Source: an uncultured Planctomycetota bacterium
GTDB lineage: Bacteria; Planctomycetota; Planctomycetia; Gemmatales; Gemmataceae
DNA: 64,000 bases
Direction: 5' to 3'
Assembly: GCA_963783095.1 (NCBI GenBank)
Contig: CAWAMR010000018.1
Coordinates: 9,920 to 73,919 of the forward strand
The translations under genes and the position numbers were made by a program. The notes beneath the pieces are model-generated. The model had not been told where the DNA came from. It made no database searches and worked only from the letters and a program-made list of their open reading frames with translations. Positions 29,741 to 45,994 of the stretch are shown one piece after another. How positions within the stretch are numbered: position 1 is the stretch's first letter; the number at the start of each line of letters is the position of its first letter.

Positions 29741-29803
29741 AAAAGATCTGTCCAACCATAGACCTGGATTTTCCGCGCTTGAAGCTGACAATACCTCCAT
29801 CCC

Positions 29804-31888
29804 ATGCACCGTGAAATCTCACACACCGATGAAGTCTTCGGCGAATCGAGCAATGCCGGGCTGTACTTGCTCACCGCCCTCCTGGCGATTTTGCTTGCTC
29901 TGGATTTGTGGACGCCTCTCGCAAGCTGGCTCACGTCGCTGAATCTCGGCATCGAATGGCCCATCTGGCAGCGTGAGTTCTCGGGTTATCGCTATGCTCT
30001 CATCGCGGCAGTTCTCGGCGGTGCCCGCGTATTGTTCAATTCATTGGAAGCCCTCTTTGACGGCAAGCTTGGTGCCGACCTCGCCATTGCCGTTGCCTGT
30101 ATCGCAGCCATCCTGATCGGTGAGCCTTTGGTCGCTGCGGAGGTGGTCTTCATTGGCTTGATCGGAGAATGTCTCGAAGCGTTCACGTTCGCTCGTTCCC
30201 AGCGCGGCATTCGCAAACTCGTCGAAGTGTTTCCGCGCAAGTGCTGGTTATTGCGCAACGGGCAGGAAATCGCGGTCAACACCGATGAGGTTCGGGTCGG
30301 CGATCGAGTTGTGGTCAAACCGGGCAAGAAAGTCCCCGTCGATGGCGTTGTCGTCGAGGGCCGATCTGCCGTTGACGCTTCACCGCTCACCGGTGAGAGC
30401 TTGCCCATCGATAAGGAGCCGGGTAATGATGTGCTTGCCGGCAGCATCAACCAGTTCGGCTTGATGATCGTTGAGGCGAAGAAGGTTGCGGAGCAAACCG
30501 TCGCGGGCCGGGTGATCGAACTAACCTCGAAGGCGCTCAAGGACAAGGCCCCCATCCAGCGCGGAGGTCGATCGGCTCGCAAGATACTTTCTCCCGGCAG
30601 TGTTGGGGCTGGCATTTCTCAGTTTCTTGATCAATGCGATCTATCTGGCAGGGCCATTTCGACCAGAATCGAGCCGGCTCAACTGGTCCGCTGCCGCCCG
30701 GCTCAGCATGTATCCTACCCTGGGCGTACTCGTCGTTGCCTGCCCATGCGCTCTGGTGCTGGCAACGCCGGCAGCGGTCATTGCTGCGCTCGGCAGGCTT
30801 GCGGGAACCGGTGTGCTCATCAAAGGAGGCAGCGTCCTCGAACGGCTCGCGACGGTGAAGACTTTTGCTTTCGACAAAACCGGAACTTTAACCGAGGGTC
30901 GGCTCGAGCTTGGCGACATCATTCCCGCAGATGGGATTGAAGCGAATGAGGTATTGCGAACCGCTGCACTTGCAGAACAAGGAAGCGAACACCCCATTGG
31001 GCAGTTGCTGATCCACACTGCGCGGGATCGGTCAATCTCCCTGGAGCCCTTGACGGAATTTCAGGCCCATCCGGCGCAGGAATCTCAGCGCTTGTTTCCG
31101 GTCATCATCTTCTCGTCGGTACGCATCAGCTGTTGGAATCCGAAGGTGTCGCGATCCCTGCCGCGATCAGGGACGCCTTGACTCACCTGGATGAATCCGG
31201 GCAAACTTCCCTCGTCGTTGTTCGCGATGGTGTGGTTCTGGGAACGATCGGGATGCGCGACAAGATTCGCCTGGACGCAGCAGACATCGTTGCGGAATTG
31301 CGCAGCGCCGGTGTCACTCGAATGATGTTGTTGACCGGCGATCGCGCTTCGGTTGCCCGCACGGTTGGTGAGCAATTACGGATCGAAGAAGTCCACGGCG
31401 AATTGCTGCCGGCCGACAAGGCAAACTTGATTTCCCAGGGGCAAGCCGCAACCGGCCCCAGCACCGCTTTTGTCGGGGACGGCATCAACGATGCTCCCGC
31501 ACTGGCCGTTGCAACGGTCGGGATCGCCGTGAGCGGTTCGGATATCGCTGCCGAGGCGGGCGATGTGGTCTTGATGGGCGAGCCGCTACGACACCTCCCT
31601 CTATTGCTCCGGCTCTCGCGCGAAACAATGCGCATCATCCGCCAAAACATTGTCTGGTTTGCTTTTGGTGTAAATCTGGTCGGTGTGTTGATCACCGGCA
31701 TTCTCTGGCCGCTGTTCGCCACGTCGCCCGACTGGTACGACAAGTCTCCGCTGTTCGGTGTCATCTATCATCAGGCCGGCTCGTTGCTGGTTTTACTCAA
31801 CTCCATCCGACTACTGGCCTTTGAGCGCCGATCGACGCATGCAGGCTGGCGGCGCTGGACGGACCGATTCGCCGCAATTGACCTGTGG
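29804..31888 (+). CDS. P1B-type heavy-metal-translocating ATPase with no N-terminal metal-binding domain; two apparent frameshifts (~30590, ~31090)
   Basis: TM-first N-terminus; TGESLPIDKEPGN actuator region, CPC in VVACPCALVLATP, DKTGTLT phosphorylation site, GDGINDAPAL. Spread across ORFs 29804..30940, 30600..31181 and 31133... Confidence 0.8.
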
Positions 31889-33119
31889 ATGCAACGAAAC
31901 CTGACGGTCGATAGCGCCTTGCACGAATTGACTCACCGCTGGCGTTGGGCGCTGGGCGGACTGGGAACGCTGGCCCTGATTGCCTGGCTGTCGACGAGCC
32001 TGGTGCAGGTTTCACCCGATCAGGTAGGAGTGTTAAAGCGATTTGGACGAATCGAGGAAATCTTACGGCCGGGGCTTCACATTCGCTGGCCCTGGCCGGT
32101 CGAGATTGTGATGAAACTGGCTCCCGATGAAGTGAAAACAGTAGGGCTTGGGTATCGCTCACCCGAAGAAGAAGAAACGGATGAGGATTTGCCGCGCAAG
32201 CGAGTTATGAAACCGAAAGCAGGTCAGGCACCGCAAGGGGCAACCTGGACCAGCCTGCATGGTGGAACCGAGAGCTTTGCCGAAGAAGCAGTGATGATAA
32301 CCGGCGATGGCAACCTCGTCGAGATTCTTGCGACCGTCGAATACCGAATCGACGACCCGAAACAGTATCTTCTCGCCGCACGGCAACGAAAACCGATACT
32401 GCGTTCGGCAATGGAATCGGTGCTGCGGGAGATGGTCGCGGGCCGGACTTTCGCCGATTTGTTGACGGTCTATCGAGCCGAATTCGAAGCCTCAGCACAG
32501 GCTCATCTCAAGCAACGAATTCGAGAACTGGCACCCGAAGGCTTAGGCATCCATCTCAATGGCTTCATCGTTCACGATCTCCATCCGCCCAGAGCTGTGG
32601 TGGCCGACTATTACGAAGTGGCCCGCGCCATTCAGGCCCGCGATCGGATGATTAACGAGGCGCAAGCCGAGGCGATCCGCAAACGTCGCCGAGCTGAGGA
32701 GGATGCCATTCGACTGGTGAATTCGGCCGGCACCGCGGCGAATGAGCACGTTGGCAGACAGGCGCTGAAACGGCGAAATTCTCGCGCTGCAACAGGCCCG
32801 TCAACAACTCGAACTGGTCGATGAGGCCAACCTGGCAGCGGAATTAAACCTTGCGCTGATAATGGGACAAGACCAAGCCACTGCGGTGAGCGACTATCTG
32901 CTTCGGCGTAAGAGATTGTTGTTGCTCAGGCGATCGATGATCGATTCGCGTCTCGCCTGGGAAGCATTGACGGAAGTTCTCCGCAAGAGAGACAAGATCA
33001 TTCTCGACATCGAAAAGCTACCGGGCCGGCGGCACTTATTTCTGGTCGATCCCGAATGGTTAAAGCCAACGATGCTGGTTCCCCCCGGCCCGCTGCTTCC
33101 CAATAGGGAAAGTAATTAG
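31889..33119 (+). CDS. SPFH/band-7 HflK-like protein, in frame with (no stop after) the ATPase; apparent frameshift near 32765
   Basis: TM helix ALGGLGTLALIAWLSTSLV followed by VSPDQVGVLKRFGRIEEILRPGLHIRWPWPVE...NGFIVHDLHPP...EAQAEAIRKRRRAEEDAI. The C-terminus RLAWEALTEVLRKRDKIILD continues in ORF 32862..33119. ATG at 31889 is a possible independent start. Confidence 0.6.
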
Positions 33120-37091: not shown

Positions 37092-38138
37092 TTATCGGTC
37101 ATCGGGGTGGGCGAGCATTTCCAGAAACTCCGGATCGACGTCGCTTCGGAATGTTCTGACACTGCCATCGGCCATACCGAACATCGTGATTCCCTTTCTT
37201 GGACCGCCAAAACCATCCGGCGACCGTTGCAAACCAAGATTCGGATCGCGCACATTCATCGGTTTTCCCCAGGCGGGATAATTTTCAGCAGCATCGCCGA
37301 TCAAGAGAAAATTGGAGGTTCCGCGCCCCTCCATGATTTCGTCAATTTTCGCGTTCCCACTCGGACTGACGGCGTGAATGTTCAATGAGTAGGATGTGAT
37401 TGCATAACCGTCCGCTCCGATGGTGGGGTACACGTATGGTGATTGATAAGTTCTCACATTTTTGGAAAATGCACTTCGATTGGCGGAATGGTTCCAGGGC
37501 TTCGTCAAATCAATCTGTTGAAAAAGTGCATTTTGTTCCAAGTAGGGCAGAAGGTATGTCTCCCATCCGTGCAACTGCCTACCATTTGAGTCAAAAGTGG
37601 CCGGAAGAGGAACTGCACCATGGGCATCGTGATAGTTCCAGAAACCGATGGTAATTTGTTTCAAGTTGTTCGCCGATTTGGCGCGCCCATCTCCACCCCT
37701 TCTATCTCTTAGTCGTGGTTCATCTGATGTCAGCAACCACAAAGTCTGATGGGCCAATCCCACGGCGGAGATGCCTGCCGTGAACACCAGAATGATGATT
37801 CCAACGAGAGAAATCGTCCACCGGAACCGCCAGTTTCGAGCAGTCCCCACTTCGTCAAAATGCCGGGTAAAGAATCGTCGGCACAACAGATGCATCCCGG
37901 CCGTCAGCAGCAACAACGCACCAACCCCTGTGGCGACAGCCTCTGGCGAAACATTTATCGAGGGAATCTTTCGGAAAAGAAAATACGCCCAACCAGTAAG
38001 AAGAACCTTCAAGAGAACACAGAGCACAGACAAGAGACTGGTGAAGAGTGCAACAAGGATAATAACAATGGCACTGATGACCCCAAGGACGATCAGCACA
38101 TCTGCGCCACGATACTTGTAAATTTGTGGTTCTGTCAT
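37092..38138 (-). CDS. DUF1559-domain protein with polytopic N-terminal membrane anchor (paralog C)
   Basis: MTEPQIYKYRGADVLIVLGVISAIVIIL... (3-4 TM), then ANNLKQITIGFWNYHDAHG...WETYLLPYLEQ...SPDGFGGPRKGITMFGMADGSVRTF (DUF1559, H-X9-DG-like C-terminus). ATG overlaps the upstream stop (ATGA). Confidence 0.65.
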   Translation of the reverse strand: MTEPQIYKYRGADVLIVLGVISAIVIILVALFTSLLSVLCVLLKVLLTGWAYFLFRKIPSINVSPEAVATGVGALLLLTAGMHLLCRRFFTRHFDEVGTARNWRFRWTISLVGIIILVFTAGISAVGLAHQTLWLLTSDEPRLRDRRGGDGRAKSANNLKQITIGFWNYHDAHGAVPLPATFDSNGRQLHGWETYLLPYLEQNALFQQIDLTKPWNHSANRSAFSKNVRTYQSPYVYPTIGADGYAITSYSLNIHAVSPSGNAKIDEIMEGRGTSNFLLIGDAAENYPAWGKPMNVRDPNLGLQRSPDGFGGPRKGITMFGMADGSVRTFRSDVDPEFLEMLAHPDDR

Positions 38139-39167
38139 TTTCCACTTCCTCCCGGATCGGTGAGAGCATTCAGAACCTCCGGATCGACATCGTCTGTGAA
38201 TATACGCACGCTGCCGTCGGCCATTCCAAACATTGTGCGCCCTTTTCGTTGGACCTCCGAAACCGTCTGGAGATCTCCCGAGACCCAACTTCGGATCGCG
38301 CACGTTCCAAGCATTTCCCCACGCAGGAAAGTTGCCTGCGGATTCACCAATCAAGAGGAAGTTGGACGAGCCGTGAACTCTTTCAATCTCTTGCATCGTG
38401 AACGGGCGGTCGCCGCGAATCGCCGTTTTGCAGAGCGAATACGTCGTGATTGGATATCCATCGATTCCAGTGGTGGCGGCAACCCTCGGATCTCGGTAAG
38501 CGCTGACTTCAGTCAAAAACGGCGCACGATTGTCGGGGTGCATCCAGGGTTTGCTCAAATCGATTTGCTGATAAAGCTTTTCTTCGCCGATGTAAGGCAG
38601 CAAGCTGGTTTGCCAGCCATGCATCTGTCTGCCAACCGGATCGAATGTTCCCGGAACTGGAATCGACTTCTTTTCCTGGTCAAAATTCAGCACGCCGAGC
38701 GCCATCTGTTTCAAGTTGTTCATTGATCTTGACCCGTTCAAAGGGTTGCTGCGATTAAGTAACGGCTCATCGGATCTGACCAGCGCCGTAGTTTGATGAG
38801 CGAACCCGGAAGCGAAAATGCCGGCCGATATCATGAGGATCACACCGCCGACAATCGCCGCCGTCCAGCGGAACCGCCAGATTCTCACCGTCTTCGATTG
38901 CGTATCTGCTCCGTTGAAAAAATGCCGAAAAACAAGGTGAATTGCAGCAAAGACGAAAACAAGTGTTACAAGCCCAATCGCCAATAACGCAGGCGAATGC
39001 TGAATGTGAGAAAATGTCTGATTACCTGATTCAGCCCAGCCCAGCACGAGCGGCTTCGCGATCTTGCGAAGCTCTTCGGAAGCCAAAAATACAAAGAATC
39101 CGATCGATCCCAGTCCAATCAGCGCCAAGCGGATGGGACCGCCGATGGATTTGTGAAGCAGGCTCAT
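38135..39167 (-). CDS. DUF1559-domain protein with polytopic membrane anchor (paralog B); apparent frameshift near 38245
   Basis: MSLLHKSIGGPIRLALIGLG... with NNLKQMALGVLNF...SPDGFGGPTK; the C-terminus RTMFGMADGSVRIFTDDVDPEVLNALTDPGGSGK is in ORF 38135..38350. Confidence 0.6.
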
Positions 39168-40177
39168 TTTGCTTGTTCTCGGGGATAGGTGAGAGCTTTC
39201 AGAACCTCCGGATCAACATCGTTCGTAATGGTTCGCACACTGCCATCCGCCATCAGGAATTGAGTGCCATTTCTCCAGGGGCCGCCAAATCCATCCGGCG
39301 AGCGATTCAGGCCGAGATTTGGATCGCGGACGTTGAGCGGATAACCCCAGGGCTTGAAGTTGCCTGCTACCTCGCCGACCAAAAGAATGTTGGATGCGCC
39401 ATTCTCAAAATCGGCAAGCTTCGGCGGGTGCGGCCCGCTCCAGGCGTGAACATTGGTGGCATAAGTGGTGATTCCAAAGCCATCAGAGTCTTTAGCATTC
39501 GGCACCGGCACTCCCACATGGAAATAGCACTCAACTCCGTGGCGAAAGTACTCTGCGTTTTCGGAGTGATTCCAGGGTTTTTTCGGATCGATTTGTCTAA
39601 AAAGGGAGTTTTGTTCGATATATGGAAGCAAAAAATAATGCCACCCGTGCAAAGCTCTTCCGTCTTCATTGAAGATGGTCGTTGCCGGCAATGCTCCGAA
39701 GCCTGTCGCGTAGTTTGCTGTTGCATTACCAATTTGTTTCAGATTGCTTGCAGACTTACTTCGAGCGGCATCATGCTTGGGGATATTCTCCTTGGAGCGG
39801 TCGTTCATGGCACGCCAAAGTTGCCCAGACTGCTCTTTCATTCCGACAACCGAAAGTCCGGCACAAAACACCACACCAATCAAGCCCACTGCAACGAGTG
39901 TCGATCGAAATCGCCATCGCGAAATGGAACCATTCTCTGCAAGTGACCGGGAAGTAAGCCAGCGCATGACTCGATGCAGCACCACGATCACCAGCATGAG
40001 CACGATCAGACCGGTTACGATCGCATCGAGTTGAAGATGCATGCGGGGGATGTTCCATTCAAGAAACTCAGTCCATTCCGTTAATAGTTGCCACGCGATC
40101 ATCGGCCAGATACAACCCCAAACGACAACGAGTAGGATTGCGATTCGCACGAACCACCTGCTGATGAAGGATGTCAC
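39164..40177 (-). CDS. DUF1559-domain protein with polytopic membrane anchor (paralog A)
   Basis: MTSFISRWFVRIAILLVVVWGCIW... with SASNLKQIGNATANY...WHYFLLPYIEQ...SPDGFGGPWRNGTQFLMADGSVRTITNDVDPEVL. Confidence 0.65.
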   Translation of the reverse strand: MTSFISRWFVRIAILLVVVWGCIWPMIAWQLLTEWTEFLEWNIPRMHLQLDAIVTGLIVLMLVIVVLHRVMRWLTSRSLAENGSISRWRFRSTLVAVGLIGVVFCAGLSVVGMKEQSGQLWRAMNDRSKENIPKHDAARSKSASNLKQIGNATANYATGFGALPATTIFNEDGRALHGWHYFLLPYIEQNSLFRQIDPKKPWNHSENAEYFRHGVECYFHVGVPVPNAKDSDGFGITTYATNVHAWSGPHPPKLADFENGASNILLVGEVAGNFKPWGYPLNVRDPNLGLNRSPDGFGGPWRNGTQFLMADGSVRTITNDVDPEVLKALTYPREQAK

Positions 40178-40896
40178 GGTTTGGCTCCCTTCAGCAGCGC
40201 TTCGATCTGATCGGCTTTCAATTTCCGGATCGACCCGTTCGTGAAAAGGGTGTACTGCCCATCGCCAAACAACTCAGGCTCCCAGGCGAGCGGCCTGGCC
40301 TCGCCTTTCCGCTTCAAACCGCCGACGTAGATGTACGGCAGCTCGGTCGGGTGCGGCACTTTCCACAGGTCGGCTGGGATCGCATATTGCGTAACCGATA
40401 GAGGAAACGCGCCATCGTTCATTTGGGCATAATCCCAGAGCGCAAATCGCAACTCCTCCAACTTGGCTTTGCGGTCGCGGTCAACGATGTCGGATCCGGA
40501 AGCCGGCTTATCCTGGACCTTGAAGGTTCGTCCATCGCGTTCCCACGCCGCCGGCGTCATCAGCTCGCGGGCTCCGGAGATCATCGTCAACACCAGGACA
40601 AAAATCAAACCCCACAACAACGTCACGCCGAGAGCCAGACGATACGACAATCTCGGCAGTTGAGTAAACTGGCTCTGAAGATAGTTCCACAAGAGACGGA
40701 TCAGGAACGCGGAAACAAAGAAACCAACCAGGAAGAAAGAGATGTTCTGGAGCCGAATCTCCGCCATCTCGGTGAGCGTAACTGTGACGGTGGGCATTCC
40801 CGCAGAAACGACACCGGGTAAACAGGTCGCGCTCAGTACAACCAGAAGTGTTGTGAAATGTGTCCGCATGGCTTCACCTGTTGCGAGTTGATTCAT
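40174..40896 (-). CDS. Hypothetical membrane protein, first gene of the four-gene operon
   Basis: Signal/TM N-terminus MRTHFTTLLVVLSATCLPGVVSA plus two internal TM helices; its stop overlaps the next gene's start. Confidence 0.5.
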   Translation of the reverse strand: MNQLATGEAMRTHFTTLLVVLSATCLPGVVSAGMPTVTVTLTEMAEIRLQNISFFLVGFFVSAFLIRLLWNYLQSQFTQLPRLSYRLALGVTLLWGLIFVLVLTMISGARELMTPAAWERDGRTFKVQDKPASGSDIVDRDRKAKLEELRFALWDYAQMNDGAFPLSVTQYAIPADLWKVPHPTELPYIYVGGLKRKGEARPLAWEPELFGDGQYTLFTNGSIRKLKADQIEALLKGAKP

Positions 40897-41034: not shown

Positions 41035-42810
41035 ATGTCCATTCGCATCCGTCTCGCTGCGCCACTTCTGCTCCTGGCTCTTGGCCTGCCCGGTTGGGCG
41101 GATGAACCTTCGGAGGGCATCAAGGAAATTGCCGAGTTGAGCAAGACCGGCAAGCTCTTCGATAAGGAGAACTACAAGGCCGTTCGAGCGGCCTGTACCA
41201 AGGTCTTTGTCGAGAAGCACAAAGACCAAATCCAGGCGGCGTATAGTGAGGATTTCGATGCCTTCAGCGCCTGGCTCGACAAGAATGTGGCCATCAAGGA
41301 AGAGTTCTACACCGCGATCAACGAAAAACTCGACAATATTCCCGGCGTGCTCAAGCTCTTCAAGGATCTGTGGAAGAAGTATCCCGAACAGGTTCAAAAG
41401 TATTACAACCTCGCCATTGCCACCGCAGTAGTCTGGGATCAGTCGCGCGGGCTTTACGACTATCGACAACACCAGGTTCGCACGCACAGCAGCTTGCCGG
41501 AATCGTATTCCAAGGTCGATGCAATCGATTCCTTCAAGTTCCTGATCGACAATCAAAAAGAGTTGCTGGGAAGTGAGAAAGTCAATCGTCTCGAGAAGTT
41601 GCCCTGGGAATTCCTCGTTTATGTGGTGGATCACCAGACTCCGTTCGACGAACGAAAATGGGCGATGAAGAAATATATTCCCAGACGGCCCATGATCGGC
41701 AAGATTTACAGCGACGTGCAATACGACTACGAGATGTTGCGAACCCAGAGCAAGACATGCAAGCTCGGCGACAAGCCGTACACGCTGGCGAACATCTTGA
41801 CGTATGGCGGAGTCTGCGCCATGCAGGCCGATTTCTCGGCACGAGTGGGCAAGAGCATTGCCGTGCCGGCAGCGTATGTCGGCGGCGAATCGCAATTCGG
41901 CGAACTGCATGCCTGGGTCATGTGGGTGGAAGTTCGCTCGGTCGTGGCCGGCAAGGTGAACTTCACCCTCGAATCGCACGGCCGATACCTGGGCGACAAT
42001 TATTACACCGGAACGCTGCACGATCCCCAGACGATGCAGCAGATTCTCGATCGCGACATGGAACGCCGGCTGGCCGCGGTGGCAAGCGATCGCATCGGCA
42101 AGCGCCAGGCCGAATTGGCCATGAAATATTACGACGAAGTGGTGGTAGCACGCGAACTGCCGCAAGCCCGCAAAATCCGCTATCTCGACGGCTGCCTGAA
42201 GTTATGTCACTTCAACGAAGCGGCCTGGCTGGAGTTGGCCAGGCAAGTTGCGCAGGGCGAGCTGGAAGCGGAATTGAAGACGATCGTTCTGCAACACTGC
42301 GAATCGATGTTGAAGACCTTTGCCAAGTATCCGGATTTCACATTCAAGCTGGCCAACGATCTGTTGAAGATCCAGCCTAACAAGGCAGCGCGCAATAAGT
42401 TCTACGAAAGGCTGGTGAACCTGTACGAAGCCGCTGGACGACCCGACCTGGCCTGCGAAGCCCGGCTCAAGTGGGCCGATTTCATCGCGGAAGAGGAGAA
42501 ATGGACGATCGCGGCGAAGGGGATTGCGCTGACAGTTCAAAAGTTCCCGGCGGAGGGGCGCTATATCCCCAAGCTGATGGCCAAGCTGGTCGAAGTATGC
42601 GGCAAGTACAAAACGGGTAACGACTTTCTCGCGCAGCAATACCTTCTGTTGCTGAAAAACATCCCAACGAAGCGCGGCAACGATCCCAGCAAGTTCTGCA
42701 TCGACATGCACGAGAAGGCAATCCTATACTTCAAGACGCTGCCGAAGAAGGACAAGGTGGTGAGGGAGTTGGAACAGCGCCTGGCGGCGATCAAAACCGG
42801 AAAGTCGTGA
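41035..42810 (+). CDS. Secreted transglutaminase-like (papain-fold Cys protease-like) domain protein
   Basis: Signal MSIRIRLAAPLLLLALGLPGWA; core YGGVCAMQADFSARVGKSIAVPAAYVGG ... HAWVMWVEV (Cys...His of a transglutaminase-like fold). Confidence 0.55.
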   Translation: MSIRIRLAAPLLLLALGLPGWADEPSEGIKEIAELSKTGKLFDKENYKAVRAACTKVFVEKHKDQIQAAYSEDFDAFSAWLDKNVAIKEEFYTAINEKLDNIPGVLKLFKDLWKKYPEQVQKYYNLAIATAVVWDQSRGLYDYRQHQVRTHSSLPESYSKVDAIDSFKFLIDNQKELLGSEKVNRLEKLPWEFLVYVVDHQTPFDERKWAMKKYIPRRPMIGKIYSDVQYDYEMLRTQSKTCKLGDKPYTLANILTYGGVCAMQADFSARVGKSIAVPAAYVGGESQFGELHAWVMWVEVRSVVAGKVNFTLESHGRYLGDNYYTGTLHDPQTMQQILDRDMERRLAAVASDRIGKRQAELAMKYYDEVVVARELPQARKIRYLDGCLKLCHFNEAAWLELARQVAQGELEAELKTIVLQHCESMLKTFAKYPDFTFKLANDLLKIQPNKAARNKFYERLVNLYEAAGRPDLACEARLKWADFIAEEEKWTIAAKGIALTVQKFPAEGRYIPKLMAKLVEVCGKYKTGNDFLAQQYLLLLKNIPTKRGNDPSKFCIDMHEKAILYFKTLPKKDKVVRELEQRLAAIKTGKS

Positions 42811-43222
42811 ATCGAATCGGAACTGGCGATCGGGTTGCTGCGCAACGGAGGCACGATGGTGCCTCCGTTTGTTTGCGTATCCCCAGAGGTGCAAATATAC
42901 TGCATCCAGCCAAGAACGAGCCTGGGGACGTGGGGTACGCGTCTCGCGTGCCCGTCAGCCGATGCCGAAGGCGACGCGGAACGGCCCCTCGAATCATTGA
43001 AATGCGCTTTGTATTTGAACATAATTTCAGTATAATAGGTGTGGTGAATTCGCCGATGAATCGGATGGGTGGGTCAAACGATTATCGATTTGATACACCA
43101 ACGCTACTACTGAATTTGGTTGTCTATCTTGCAACCAGACTGCAATCATGGGATAAGAAAACGCCCACACGATCGTGGGTATCGAATCGCTTCTTCCTCA
43201 TGGAGAAGAACCAGGAGCGACT

Positions 43223-44338
43223 ATGAACAGTTTTCGTCTTGTCAGTCTCGCGTTTCTTTTCTCGATGTCGCCGGCGTTTGCGGCGGGCGATGACACTCGG
43301 GCAATCGCTGCCAACAAGCGCGGGAATAAACACGCTGATGCCGGAGAATACGACAAGGCAATCGAATCTTACAGTGAAGCTATCCGTCTCGATCCAAACT
43401 TCGCGAAAGCGTACCGCAACCGGGGCTGGGTATACGGCCATAAAGGTAACCACGACAAGGCGATTGACGATTTCACCGATGCGATTCGCCTCGATCCGAA
43501 GAATGCGGATGCCTACCGAAGCCGGGGTGTCGCCTACGAGAAGAAAGGCGACCTCAACAAAGCAATTGAAGACTACACGGGTGCGACTCGCTTGAATTCG
43601 AAGGATAGCACTGCTTACAACAACCGGGGCAATGCATACCAACTGAAGGACAATTTCGACAAGGCAATTGAAGACTACACCGAAGCGATCAAGATCAACC
43701 CGAAGTATGCCAAAGCCTACTCCAATCGCGGTTTGGCATACTGCAACAAGGGTGATCTCGGCAAGGCAATTGAGGACTACACCGAAGCGATTCGCCTCGA
43801 TCCAAAGGATGCCAAAACCTACTGCAACCGGGGTTGCGCCTACGAGGACAAGGGAAACCTTGACAAGGCAATCGACGACCACTCCGAAGCGATTCGCCTG
43901 AATCCGAAGTCGCCTACTTCGCGCTTTAACCGTGGTATCGTATGGACAAAGAAGGGTAACCTGGACAAAGCGATTGTCGATTTCACCGAATCCATTCGCA
44001 TCAATCCGATGGATTCGGATGCCTATTACGCCCGAGCAACGACTTACATCGTGCAAGAAAAGCTCGACGAGGCGATTGCGGACTTCACCGAAACCATTCG
44101 CCGCGATTCCAAGTATGGCAAAGCCTTCAACAACCGAGGTGCCGCATACGTTAGGAAGGGTGAGTTCAACAAGGCAATCGAGGACTTCACCGAAGCGATT
44201 CGCCTCGATCCGAAAAATGCAGGAGCATTCCACAATCGAGGCAACGCATACAAACTGAACGGCGATCTGGACAAAGCCAAAGCCGACTACATCGAGGCTG
44301 CCCGGCTCAATTCGAAGATTGGGGAGAAATTGAAGTGA
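43223..44338 (+). CDS. Secreted tetratricopeptide (TPR) repeat protein
   Basis: Signal peptide, then ~10 tandem 34-aa units (DKAIEDYTEAIRLDPK.A.AY.NRG.AY..KG). Confidence 0.85.
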   Translation: MNSFRLVSLAFLFSMSPAFAAGDDTRAIAANKRGNKHADAGEYDKAIESYSEAIRLDPNFAKAYRNRGWVYGHKGNHDKAIDDFTDAIRLDPKNADAYRSRGVAYEKKGDLNKAIEDYTGATRLNSKDSTAYNNRGNAYQLKDNFDKAIEDYTEAIKINPKYAKAYSNRGLAYCNKGDLGKAIEDYTEAIRLDPKDAKTYCNRGCAYEDKGNLDKAIDDHSEAIRLNPKSPTSRFNRGIVWTKKGNLDKAIVDFTESIRINPMDSDAYYARATTYIVQEKLDEAIADFTETIRRDSKYGKAFNNRGAAYVRKGEFNKAIEDFTEAIRLDPKNAGAFHNRGNAYKLNGDLDKAKADYIEAARLNSKIGEKLK

Positions 44339-44503
44339 GAGGAGCCATGCGCCCTCTTTGCCCACGCAATCGTTCCTGCGAGTTTCCCTTCCGATCATTC
44401 TCCCCTTTTTCGGATGCAGTCCATTGAACCGCCATCGGATGTCGGTTAGACTTTCCTTATATGGTGCCCGCCTTCCTTCCCTCCCTTTTCGTTTGAGGCT
44501 TTT

Positions 44504-45994
44504 ATGGGTCCGTTCAATCGTCGTGAATTTCTTCAACAGTCGGCCGTCATCAGCGCAGCCCTCGCTGCTCTCGAAGGTGGTTCCTTAGTCGCCGAAGAAC
44601 CCAAACCTACTGCTGCCCGTTCGGTCGGAGCCAACGACAAGCTGCGCGTGGCCGTCGTCGGCGTTCACGGGCGCGGCATGGCCCACGTCAACGGCTTCAA
44701 CAACATCGAAGGCTGCGAAATCGTCACCATCTGCGATTGCGATGAAGCCGTCATCGGCTCCGCGATGAAGTCGGTCGAGAGGAAAAACGGCAAAGCGCCC
44801 AAGTACGAGCAGGACTTGCGCAGAGTCGTCGAAGATAAGAGCATCGACATCGTTTCCATCGCCACACCCAACCACTGGCATGCTCTTGCTGCCATCTGGG
44901 CACTGCAAAACGGCAAGGATGTCTACGTCGAAAAGCCGGTTAGCCATAATGTCTGGGAAGGCCGGCAAATCGTCGAGTCGGCGCGCAGGATGAAGAAGAT
45001 CTGCCAGGCGGGCACGCAAAGCCGATCGACGACCGGGATGCGCGATGCCATGCAGTACATTCACGACGGCAAAATCGGCACGGTGAAACTCGCCTACGGC
45101 ACTTGCTACAAGCGGCGCGGCAGCATCGGCAAAGTCACCGAGGACCAGGCCGTTCCCAAGAGCATGAACTACGATCTGTGGTCCGGCCCCGCTCCGATTC
45201 TGCCGGTCCATCGCAAGAGCCTGCACTACGACTGGCACTGGATCTGGGCCTACGGCAACGGCGATCTCGGCAACCAGGGCATTCATGAGATGGACAAGGC
45301 TCGCTGGGGGCTCGGCAAAATGGATCTGCCCAAGAGCGTCATAAGCGTCGGCGGCCGCTTCGGTTACGTCGATGACGGCGAGACGGCCAACACCCAACTG
45401 GCGCTGTTCGATTACGGCGACTCGGAACTGATCTTCGAAGTCCGCGGGCTGGAAAGCATCAGCCCCTATCCCGGCAAGGTGGCGGCTGCCAAGAAGGGGA
45501 GCAATTTCGTCGGCAACATTTTCTACGGCGATCAGGGCACGGTCGTCTGCCCGAACTACGGCAGCGGCATCATCCTCGACAAGGATCTGGCGGTGGTGAA
45601 GAAATTCTCCGGCGGCGGTGATGGTGCCCACTTCGAGAATTTTGTCAAGGCGGTGCGGAGCCGAAAGGCCGAGGAACTCAACGGTCCTATTCTCGAAGGG
45701 CATCTTTCCAGTGCGCTGTGTCACCTGGCCAATATCAGTTACCAGCTTGGCACTTCCAAGCCCATGAGCGAGGTGAAAGAGTTCACCGACAACAAGGACG
45801 CTCAGGAAGCCTTCACTCGAATGATGGCTCACCTGGAAGATAACAAGGTCGATCTCAGCCAGGCGATGGGCCGGGTTGGACCATTGCTGCAAATCGCTGC
45901 GAAGTCGGAGAAGTTCACCGGCAACGTCAAGGCCAATGGGTTATTGACGCGAGAATATCGCAAGGGTTTTGAAGTCACGGCACCGACCGTTTGA
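44504..45994 (+). CDS. Gfo/Idh/MocA family oxidoreductase with Tat signal
   Basis: RREFLQQSAVISAALAAL; Rossmann LRVAVVGVHGRGMAHV; EKPVSHNVWEGRQIV. Confidence 0.85.
   Translation: MGPFNRREFLQQSAVISAALAALEGGSLVAEEPKPTAARSVGANDKLRVAVVGVHGRGMAHVNGFNNIEGCEIVTICDCDEAVIGSAMKSVERKNGKAPKYEQDLRRVVEDKSIDIVSIATPNHWHALAAIWALQNGKDVYVEKPVSHNVWEGRQIVESARRMKKICQAGTQSRSTTGMRDAMQYIHDGKIGTVKLAYGTCYKRRGSIGKVTEDQAVPKSMNYDLWSGPAPILPVHRKSLHYDWHWIWAYGNGDLGNQGIHEMDKARWGLGKMDLPKSVISVGGRFGYVDDGETANTQLALFDYGDSELIFEVRGLESISPYPGKVAAAKKGSNFVGNIFYGDQGTVVCPNYGSGIILDKDLAVVKKFSGGGDGAHFENFVKAVRSRKAEELNGPILEGHLSSALCHLANISYQLGTSKPMSEVKEFTDNKDAQEAFTRMMAHLEDNKVDLSQAMGRVGPLLQIAAKSEKFTGNVKANGLLTREYRKGFEVTAPTV

Follow-up and report, generated by a model that had tools for sequence, protein, structure and literature searches.

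In the 64-kb stretch of Gemmataceae (Planctomycetota) DNA analysed here (the window), four co-directional genes on the minus strand (40896..37092) encode a small membrane protein, P0, and three paralogous partner proteins, A, B and C, each of which carries a DUF1559 (PF07596) head behind a domain of three membrane helices (the N-domain). Sequence comparison assigns the locus to the Planctomycetia branch of a widespread, unannotated two-gene membrane module, a branch with DUF1559 heads and a decaying prepilin helix. It represents a conserved DUF1559 sub-architecture, in which a pilin-type head would be held in the membrane and a second conserved membrane protein is its obligate companion. P0 and its partners are proposed to form a stoichiometric inner-membrane complex whose fixed periplasmic heads act as a membrane-proximal binding or docking module. 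We give this reading a probability of about 0.55 and rank it above the alternatives of a pseudopilus base or nucleator, a transporter, a cleavable prepilin, and an artefact or decaying gene array.

In many Planctomycetes genomes no paralog family is larger than DUF1559, for which no function has been demonstrated (PMC10632474, PMC2754498). Planctopirus limnophila has 68 DUF1559 paralogs, two of which are essential (PMC10632474). The family has been called a new solute-binding family on the word of Pfam, and stress-regulated members have been noted (PMC2754498). The literature on DUF1559, on H-X9-DG proteins and on the locus tags of Myxococcus stipitatus yielded no function and nothing on the present architecture. 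Neither Pfam nor NCBIfam holds a model for P0 or for the N-domain, with only sub-threshold noise returned (COX1, E = 0.012; MASE2, E = 3.6e-4; AmaP; Yip1), and a sequence-profile search of the PDB gave no match for either. All sources label these proteins 'hypothetical protein', in line with the original prediction, made from the DNA letters, which knew of no functional description.

Gene pairing and distribution

Across GTDB, with each species represented by one genome, a pattern scan detected 265 P0 loci. They occur in the Planctomycetia (Gemmataceae, Isosphaeraceae, Pirellulales, Gimesia and Planctomicrobium), the Phycisphaerae (Tepidisphaerales), Candidatus (Ca.) Uabimicrobium, the Verrucomicrobiota and the Myxococcota (Archangium, Myxococcus, Corallococcus and Polyangium, and also Melittangium and Pyxidicoccus). 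Gene neighbourhoods were compared in 83 loci, comprising the best 80 of the 265 GTDB loci and three loci from other look-ups. The gene directly after P0 carries an N-domain in all 80 GTDB loci with downstream DNA, and the three remaining loci stop at P0. This pair spans the Planctomycetota, Verrucomicrobiota and Myxococcota. Its stop and start codons overlap in 74 of 79 pairs from these three phyla, by 4 nt (n = 53), 1 nt (n = 11), 8 nt (n = 4) or 11 nt (n = 6), which argues for coupled, stoichiometric synthesis. All-against-all clustering of every open reading frame (ORF) in the 83 loci produced no third conserved gene; the other large clusters were antisense shadows of the same two genes.

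Homologous operons, which the original prediction had allowed might be absent, are abundant, and across GTDB they reach beyond the Planctomycetota. Its suggestion of a membrane-embedded complex of the four products appears very likely. Obligate adjacency and translational coupling point to such a complex, as do the combination of a conserved core with a variable head and the loss of pilin-processing features.

The number of partner genes per locus ranges from one to five. One locus (L056, 5995-12237) has five partner paralogs behind a single P0, two of them with starts resembling the class-III (pilin-type) signal. In another (L049, 5929-11405) the whole module is duplicated in tandem, in the order P0-X-X-P0'-X-X.

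Searched alone against 1.84 billion proteins, the N-domain profile matched 1,692 cluster representatives at E<=1e-3, with 1,271 left at the stricter E<=1e-10, and the match always lies at the N-terminus. The lengths of the matched proteins cluster at ~335-360 amino acids (aa), with DUF1559 heads, and at 240-290 aa, with other heads; shorter sequences are fragments. The many matches, always N-terminal, mark this region as a conserved domain family, not a random anchor. N-domains that carry a DUF1559 head are homologous to those that carry another head (hhalign probability 99.9%, E = 1e-34). The P0 family has 1,335 database relatives, with homologues of ~232 aa, and its hidden Markov model (HMM) matches the P0 of the window with E = 7e-126. 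P0 is the more conserved and more diagnostic partner of the pair. Two unannotated protein families are thus defined, with >1,300 (P0) and ~1,700 (N-domain) representatives, and the simple two-gene unit lends itself to genetic tests in cultured hosts such as Singulisphaera, Limnoglobus, Myxococcus stipitatus, Myxococcus fulvus and Archangium.

The head varies with lineage. Full DUF1559 heads are found in the Planctomycetia, a mini-head in the Tepidisphaerales, and unrelated heads of ~110 aa in the Myxococcota, Verrucomicrobiota and Ca. Uabimicrobium. A Pfam scan of the non-DUF1559 heads gave no match, with one exception. In a Tepidisphaerales protein, the ~100-aa head aligns with PF07596 over no more than the final 22 profile positions (25 bits). 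The same protein also matches the P0 HMM (9e-7). It is a 242-aa partner in a metagenome-assembled genome of the Tepidisphaeraceae (L067, 6627-7355), and may be an intermediate between P0 heads, mini-heads and full DUF1559 heads. Judged by these heads and hosts, the module is specific neither to DUF1559 nor to the Planctomycetota.

Membrane domains, DUF1559 heads and the prepilin helix

P0 begins with a Sec-type signal peptide ending VSA/GMP (the slash marks the cut), followed by two transmembrane (TM) helices with a positively charged, predicted cytoplasmic loop between them. AxA/GMP precedes the mature end in 53 of 78 P0-family sequences, and the inter-helix loop contains on average 3.8 Lys and Arg residues (K+R). 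With a signal peptide of this kind and two helices around a positive loop, both ends of mature P0 should be periplasmic, a topology that draws on the AxA site, the positive-inside rule and hydropathy. The protein carries the invariant motif LVLTMISGARELMTPxAW and a predicted periplasmic alpha/beta head of ~105 aa ending LFTNGSIR; its conserved polar residues are Arg110/Glu111, Asn71 and Arg82. The mature N-terminus, GMPTVTLTEMAEIRLQNISFFL (residues ~33-56; 40750-40800), resembles the cytochrome oxidase subunit I segment DMAFPRxNNxSFWL. This is probably chance, as both the Pfam COX1 match and the PDB match 8ucj_a (E = 3.6) are non-significant.

The P0 head also shows likeness to DUF1559 motifs. 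KLEELRFALWDYAxxxxGxFP in P0 recalls NLKQIGLAxxNYxxxxxxLP, and PELFG....LFTNGSIR recalls PDGFGGP....xMADGSVR. Profile alignment of P0 with its partners was weak (hhalign probability 30-38%) and colinear over the TM-loop-TM-helix order. The local motif match PxxFG...LFxxGSxR between P0 and the partners was likewise weak (34%). So was BLASTP of P0 against A, which aligned 103 aa at 24% identity (E = 0.002). The Tepidisphaerales partner, with its matches to both the P0 HMM and the end of PF07596, belongs to the same suggestive evidence. That P0 and its partners share an origin is plausible on these grounds, and is not claimed here.

In each paralog a membrane domain of ~135-145 aa, with three hydrophobic helices by hydropathy, precedes the NLKQ motif. 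An AlphaFold2 (AF2) model of C, made from a 32-sequence alignment, agrees (predicted local distance difference test, pLDDT, 88; predicted template modelling score, pTM, 0.70). It places helices at residues 11-60, 65-92 and 105-137, then a linker, and then a head helix (149-173) followed by beta strands. Linker residues 138-148 have a pLDDT of 58-73 and the flanking helices 84-97. The first of these helices is read as TM1 plus an interfacial helix bearing a near-invariant GW motif, because many relatives have a Gly/Pro-rich break ~20 residues into it. The ~150 aa with 3-4 TM helices that had been predicted before the DUF1559 core are thus polytopic, and consist of three TM helices and one interfacial helix, not four TM helices.

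From its N-terminus, C presents helix 1 (YRG/ADVLIV), the GW interfacial helix, TM2 with the conserved His83, the predicted cytoplasmic WRFRWT loop, and TM3 ending AGISAVGLAHQTLWL. The corresponding motifs of the N-domain family are GW in the interfacial helix, His in TM2, WxxRWT in the loop and AGxxxVGxxHQxxWL at the end of TM3. All four occur in B and C. A diverges most, with EW for GW and KEQ for THQ, yet it matches the N-domain HMM with E = 3e-37. Mean K+R over 76 family members is 2.2 for the N-terminus, 1.4 for the loop before TM2 and 4.2 for the loop between TM2 and TM3. This distribution, together with hydropathy and the AF2 model, suggests that the partners lie with the N-terminus inside and the head outside, the same orientation as an unprocessed prepilin.

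The heads of A, B and C are DUF1559 heads, as had been predicted, and all three carry the PF07596 core behind the membrane region. PF07596 (gathering cut-off 23.3 bits) scores 82.1 bits for A and 129.5 bits, in three stretches, for the ORF in which B and C are joined in the window. The alignment begins at profile position 9, directly past the membrane region. Overall identity among A, B and C is 38-51% (BLASTP, E 4e-65 to 2e-101), with pairwise values of 47-55% for the heads and 26-43% for the N-domains. In translations and in near-invariant alignment columns, the heads keep the DUF1559 motifs NNLKQ, LLPY(L/I)EQ, PW and DGSVR in order, with NLKQ at residue 145, 151 and 158 in A, B and C. A scan of all window ORFs with the DUF1559-core HMM found no match outside the operon.

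The H-X9-DG signature is eroded. With a cut-off of 19 bits, TIGR04294 scores 21.9 bits for A, which exceeds it, and 14.0 and 15.7 bits for B and C, which fall below. In place of the His ten residues before DG, A, B and C have W, T and R, respectively. The His is kept in 4 of 67 subfamily members versus five of six canonical prepilin-type examples. DUF1559 heads of three-helix members also have a motif specific to the subfamily, SPDGFGGP.

The features by which a pilin is processed and extracted, namely a single helix, Gly-1/Glu5 and a continuous alpha-1 helix, are lost in A, B and C. PF07963 (N_methyl) had no match in the operon proteins at E<=1, helix 3 included, and a motif scan for GFTxxE-type signals found none in any window ORF. 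At the helix-1 site A lacks the Gly, B has GG/P, and C has a relic, RG/ADVLI, without Glu5. None of the three has a single N-terminal TM helix continuous with head alpha-1; there are three helices and, in the AF2 model of C, a low-confidence linker before the head helix.

Some 33 database proteins align with C from end to end, and many start with the class-III signal MRRGFTLIELLVV as helix 1, ahead of the remaining membrane segments (interfacial helix, TM2 and TM3) and the DUF1559 head. The nearest homologues of C (P0002-P0004, 48-51% identity) have this canonical class-III helix 1. A class-III-like helix 1 is present in 18 of 88 full-length DUF1559-fused members (~20%), strictly canonical in 10, and in none of the 19 members with non-DUF1559 heads. 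As the closest relatives of C have a canonical helix 1, the polytopic region is best described as a prepilin helix with an inserted block (interfacial helix, TM2 and TM3), an extension and not a replacement, and the class-III signature appears to decay in most lineages. The earlier description of anchors instead of a prepilin N-terminus is right in that no prepilin signal is recognisable in A, B or C, and needs correction for the relatives that retain a MRRGFTLIELLVV-type helix 1.

That the proteins are ordinary prepilins after all, the N-terminal region being a long leader that is removed to release a normal pseudopilin, is very improbable. C does have Arg-Gly before its first hydrophobic helix, and some relatives have perfect class-III sites. 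However, the cut of prepilin peptidase falls before helix 1 and would strip only 4-13 residues, so that even an intact site would yield a product with all three helices. At this site A lacks Gly and B reads Gly-Gly-Pro, so the cleavable signals against which the original prediction had been hedged are missing in both; helix 3 has no N_methyl match. Helices 2 and 3 are also the best-conserved segment of the three-helix proteins, which is unexpected for a discarded leader.

A role in a DUF1559 pseudopilus has also been considered. The three-TM proteins could be a membrane-fixed base or nucleator, a non-extractable first or last subunit on which the many canonical, prepilin-type DUF1559 paralogs would polymerise, although we regard this as rather unlikely; the same doubt attaches to the idea that they tether the fibre to the inner membrane or restrict how long it grows. 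The canonical class-III helix 1 (Gly-1, Phe+1, Glu+5) of the 18 relatives mentioned above, the nearest of C included, would fit such a role, as would heads that keep NNLKQ, LLPYxEQ, PW and DGSVR. Most members, A and B among them, nevertheless lack Gly-1 and Glu+5, and the flexible linker parts the head from helix 3, so that the head does not sit on a continuous alpha-1 helix. The neighbourhoods have no conserved GspE/F/D or PilB/C/Q genes, and the module occurs with non-DUF1559 heads in phyla where the role is impossible.

In the proposed complex, P0 would be a two-helix subunit after cleavage by signal peptidase I, with its small alpha/beta head in the periplasm. It would pair with one or more partners, and here up to three DUF1559 heads could share one P0. 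Each partner would consist of a three-helix membrane domain with a cytoplasmic N-terminus, a flexible linker of 10-15 residues, and a periplasmic, pseudopilin-like DUF1559 head. Unlike a pilin, a head tethered in this way could not be extracted from the membrane into a filament, because three helices and a partner would hold it and it is not continuous with a single N-terminal helix. Being barred from a fibre, it would most likely serve for binding or docking, as a fixed periplasmic module close to the membrane. The membrane core (P0 and the N-domain) would be the constant part and the head the exchangeable one.

Some observations weigh against this complex, in which the association of the products is read from gene order and coupling. 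A perfect class-III signal, Glu5 included, survives at helix 1 in ~20% of the DUF1559-fused relatives, a hint that some members still meet prepilin peptidase or the pilus assembly machinery. These relatives offer a natural test of how that machinery acts on a non-extractable substrate. The last helices carry strongly conserved polar motifs at their periplasmic ends (HQTxWL..SPEP in the partners, SGARELMTPGAW in P0), which suggest that the membrane core does more than anchor.

Transport is another candidate function. The five to six helices of P0 and a partner might form a conduit, as a small heteromeric transporter or channel for which the tethered head captures the ligand. A conserved membrane core with a variable head would suit this, and there are invariant polar residues at helix ends (His83 and the His-Gln after TM3 in the partner; Arg110/Glu111, Asn71 and Arg82 in P0). 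The historical Pfam name of PF07596 is SBP_bac_10, and the family is listed as solute-binding (PMC2754498). We nonetheless consider a transporter unlikely, and more so than a pseudopilus base. Searches of Pfam, NCBIfam, PDB sequences and folds showed no likeness to transporter families, the helices are very few, and no ATPase or energy-coupling gene is linked in the 83 related loci. No experimental basis for the solute-binding label was found in the literature.

A broader and more speculative possibility, to which we attach little weight, is that P0 and the three-TM partner are an unrecognised multi-phylum envelope machine with an exchangeable head, and that the locked DUF1559 heads dock canonical pseudopilins for assembly or cargo handover. 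In the Planctomycetia, just as tentatively, the head might then have been taken from the largest paralog family of the phylum, or given to it. If true, this would be the first functional entry into the DUF1559 expansion, exemplified by the 68 paralogs of Planctopirus limnophila (PMC10632474).

Locus layout, assembly quality and surroundings

Read as ORFs, P0, A, B and C overlap, with zero intergenic space. Three tandem DUF1559 paralogs after a further membrane protein had been predicted, and this layout was borne out by four minus-strand genes with PF07596 matches and an upstream product of 240 aa that is a membrane protein. The P0 gene (40174..40896) encodes 240 aa from its first ATG. The start is probably the second ATG (40869, Met10), giving 231 aa, because AGGTGA precedes this codon, homologues are of similar length, and the position of a sigma-70-like promoter candidate fits. 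This candidate, GTAACA-17-TATAAT on the minus strand upstream of P0 (40905..40933), has 10 of 12 consensus matches; it is a consensus match only, with no evidence of function.

Paralog A (39164..40177, 337 aa) has its three-TM N-domain in residues 1 to ~132 and its DUF1559 head at ~139-337. It starts with GTG, so that the P0/A overlap, read from the sequence, is GTGA (40174..40177). The ATGA overlap that had been ascribed to all four genes holds for A/B (39164..39167, also a direct reading) and for B/C. Paralog B (38135..39167) has 343 aa after one A is deleted from a run at 38243-38246, and its junction with C is an ATGA stop/start once the frame is restored. Paralog C (37092..38138) has 348 aa, with the DUF1559 head at residues 152-348. 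The ribosome-binding site noted before C was found again by direct reading as the Shine-Dalgarno-like GGGAGGAAG (38145..38153), 6 nt 5' of its ATG.

In the window as given, B and C form a single ORF of 691 aa (39167..37092). It reads as paralog B through codon 308, and the last ~35 codons of B are shifted. Past the homopolymer AAAA (38246..38243), which has one surplus base, the family frame is lost (..GGPTKRAHNVWNGRRQ..), and the reading then runs in frame into the ATG of C at 38138. Deleting one A gives the B end ..GGPTKGRTMFGMADGSVRIFTDDVDPEVLNALTDPGGSGK and a TGA that overlaps this ATG. An independent Logan assembly (L001, run ERR10755938) is identical to the window over 328 aligned bases except for AAA in place of AAAA, and there B ends ...KGRTMFGMADGSVRIFTDDVDPEVLNALTDPGGSGK before its stop, with the ATGA overlap to C.

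The 691-aa fusion has been deposited as such in NCBI/ENA, from a 356-kb contig, and a sibling 7.4-kb ENA contig has the same genes broken into pieces of 284, 160 and 185 aa. Other genes are affected as well. In two near-identical ENA loci an amidohydrolase of 444 aa is intact in one (L003) and in three pieces in the other (L004, 4533-5869), and in a further locus (L002) ABC-transporter and FtsX genes are likewise fragmented. The ENA assembly series behind these loci is indel-prone. With AAA in the independent assembly and fragmented sibling contigs, the extra A most probably arose as an indel during assembly and could at most be a strain variant, and biologically A, B and C are three separate paralogs. 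The original prediction had treated B and C as distinct genes, which they are in the independent assembly and are not in the window as given. A programmed +1 frameshift at A_AAA_AGG_G in B was also considered, and is ruled out by AAA with a normal ORF in the independent assembly and by the indel-ridden sibling contigs.

The frameshift of B and the broken genes elsewhere in the assembly series could also indicate that the whole array is decaying or an artefact of assembly or annotation, with B a pseudogene and the N-termini mis-assembled. This is highly improbable, since B is intact in the independent assembly, the architecture is identical in ~1,700 cluster representatives and in 80 of 80 GTDB loci, and all three paralogs keep the invariant residues of the family.

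Upstream, the operon is bordered by a divergent plus-strand gene (41035-42810) for a protein of 591 aa, which has a signal-like stretch at its N-terminus and belongs to no Pfam family; identical records come from the same contig family only. Downstream are small hypothetical genes and a class-III aminotransferase. A Pfam scan of ten flanking genes found no secretion, pilus or prepilin-peptidase family. Further away, a P-type ATPase gene on the plus strand (29789-32824) is seemingly broken across frames, with E1-E2_ATPase in frame 1 to 30940. Frame 2 holds a membrane segment (30525-31181), and the HAD hydrolase domain follows in frame 1 again from ~31133. The last ORF of this region also has an SPFH/Band 7 domain (residues 292-514), and the region reflects either further indel errors or an unusual fusion. 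At 43124-44536, a plus-strand protein of 387 aa (43175-44338) consists almost entirely of TPR repeats. Its gene is wholly covered by an antisense ORF of 470 aa, presumably a shadow of the repeat periodicity.

Comparison with known systems

The major pseudopilins GspG, PulG and EpsG of type II secretion gave no significant match in Foldseek and sequence searches. The heads of A, B and C are about twice as large, and there is no continuous alpha-1 helix. No assembly genes of the GspD/E/F type, as in type II secretion systems, were present among the scanned neighbours in the window or conserved across the 83 related loci.

PilN/PilO and GspL/GspM, alignment subunits of the inner membrane, act as heterodimers of co-translated proteins, each with a small alpha/beta head in the periplasm. 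P0 and its partner resemble them in being a co-translated inner-membrane pair with predicted periplasmic heads. They differ in that PilN/PilO and GspL/GspM are bitopic, have ferredoxin-like heads and are known only from pilus or secretion operons; Pfam and NCBIfam detected no homology. In the Sulfolobus bindosome a class-III signal is carried by a sugar-binding protein rather than by a fibre subunit. Unlike the present module, the bindosome proteins are processed, have a single helix, and are served by a dedicated assembly ATPase and platform, with nothing comparable linked to P0 and its partners.

The archaeal proteins FlaF and FlaG (ArlF/ArlG), accessory proteins of a type IV filament machine, are anchored in the membrane and have pilin-like N-termini. 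They provide a working analogy, that of a filament-family protein which is kept anchored in the membrane and does not enter the fibre. FlaF is described as a monotopic membrane protein that anchors the archaellum (PMC4425475). FlaF has one helix versus three in A, B and C, its head is a beta-sandwich, it is encoded in the archaellum operon, and our searches found no relation in sequence or fold.

The canonical DUF1559/H-X9-DG prepilin-type proteins (PF07963, PF07596 and TIGR04294) share with A, B and C the full PF07596 head and the family motifs, and some relatives of A, B and C keep the MRRGFTLIELLVV start. In contrast to them, the family described here has an interfacial helix and two TM helices inserted after the prepilin helix, ahead of the head. 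A and B have lost the class-III signal and C keeps a degenerate form of it, another residue stands in place of the His of H-X9-DG, and the SPDGFGGP motif is present. The three-helix gene is also obligately paired with P0, whereas the canonical paralogs are not.

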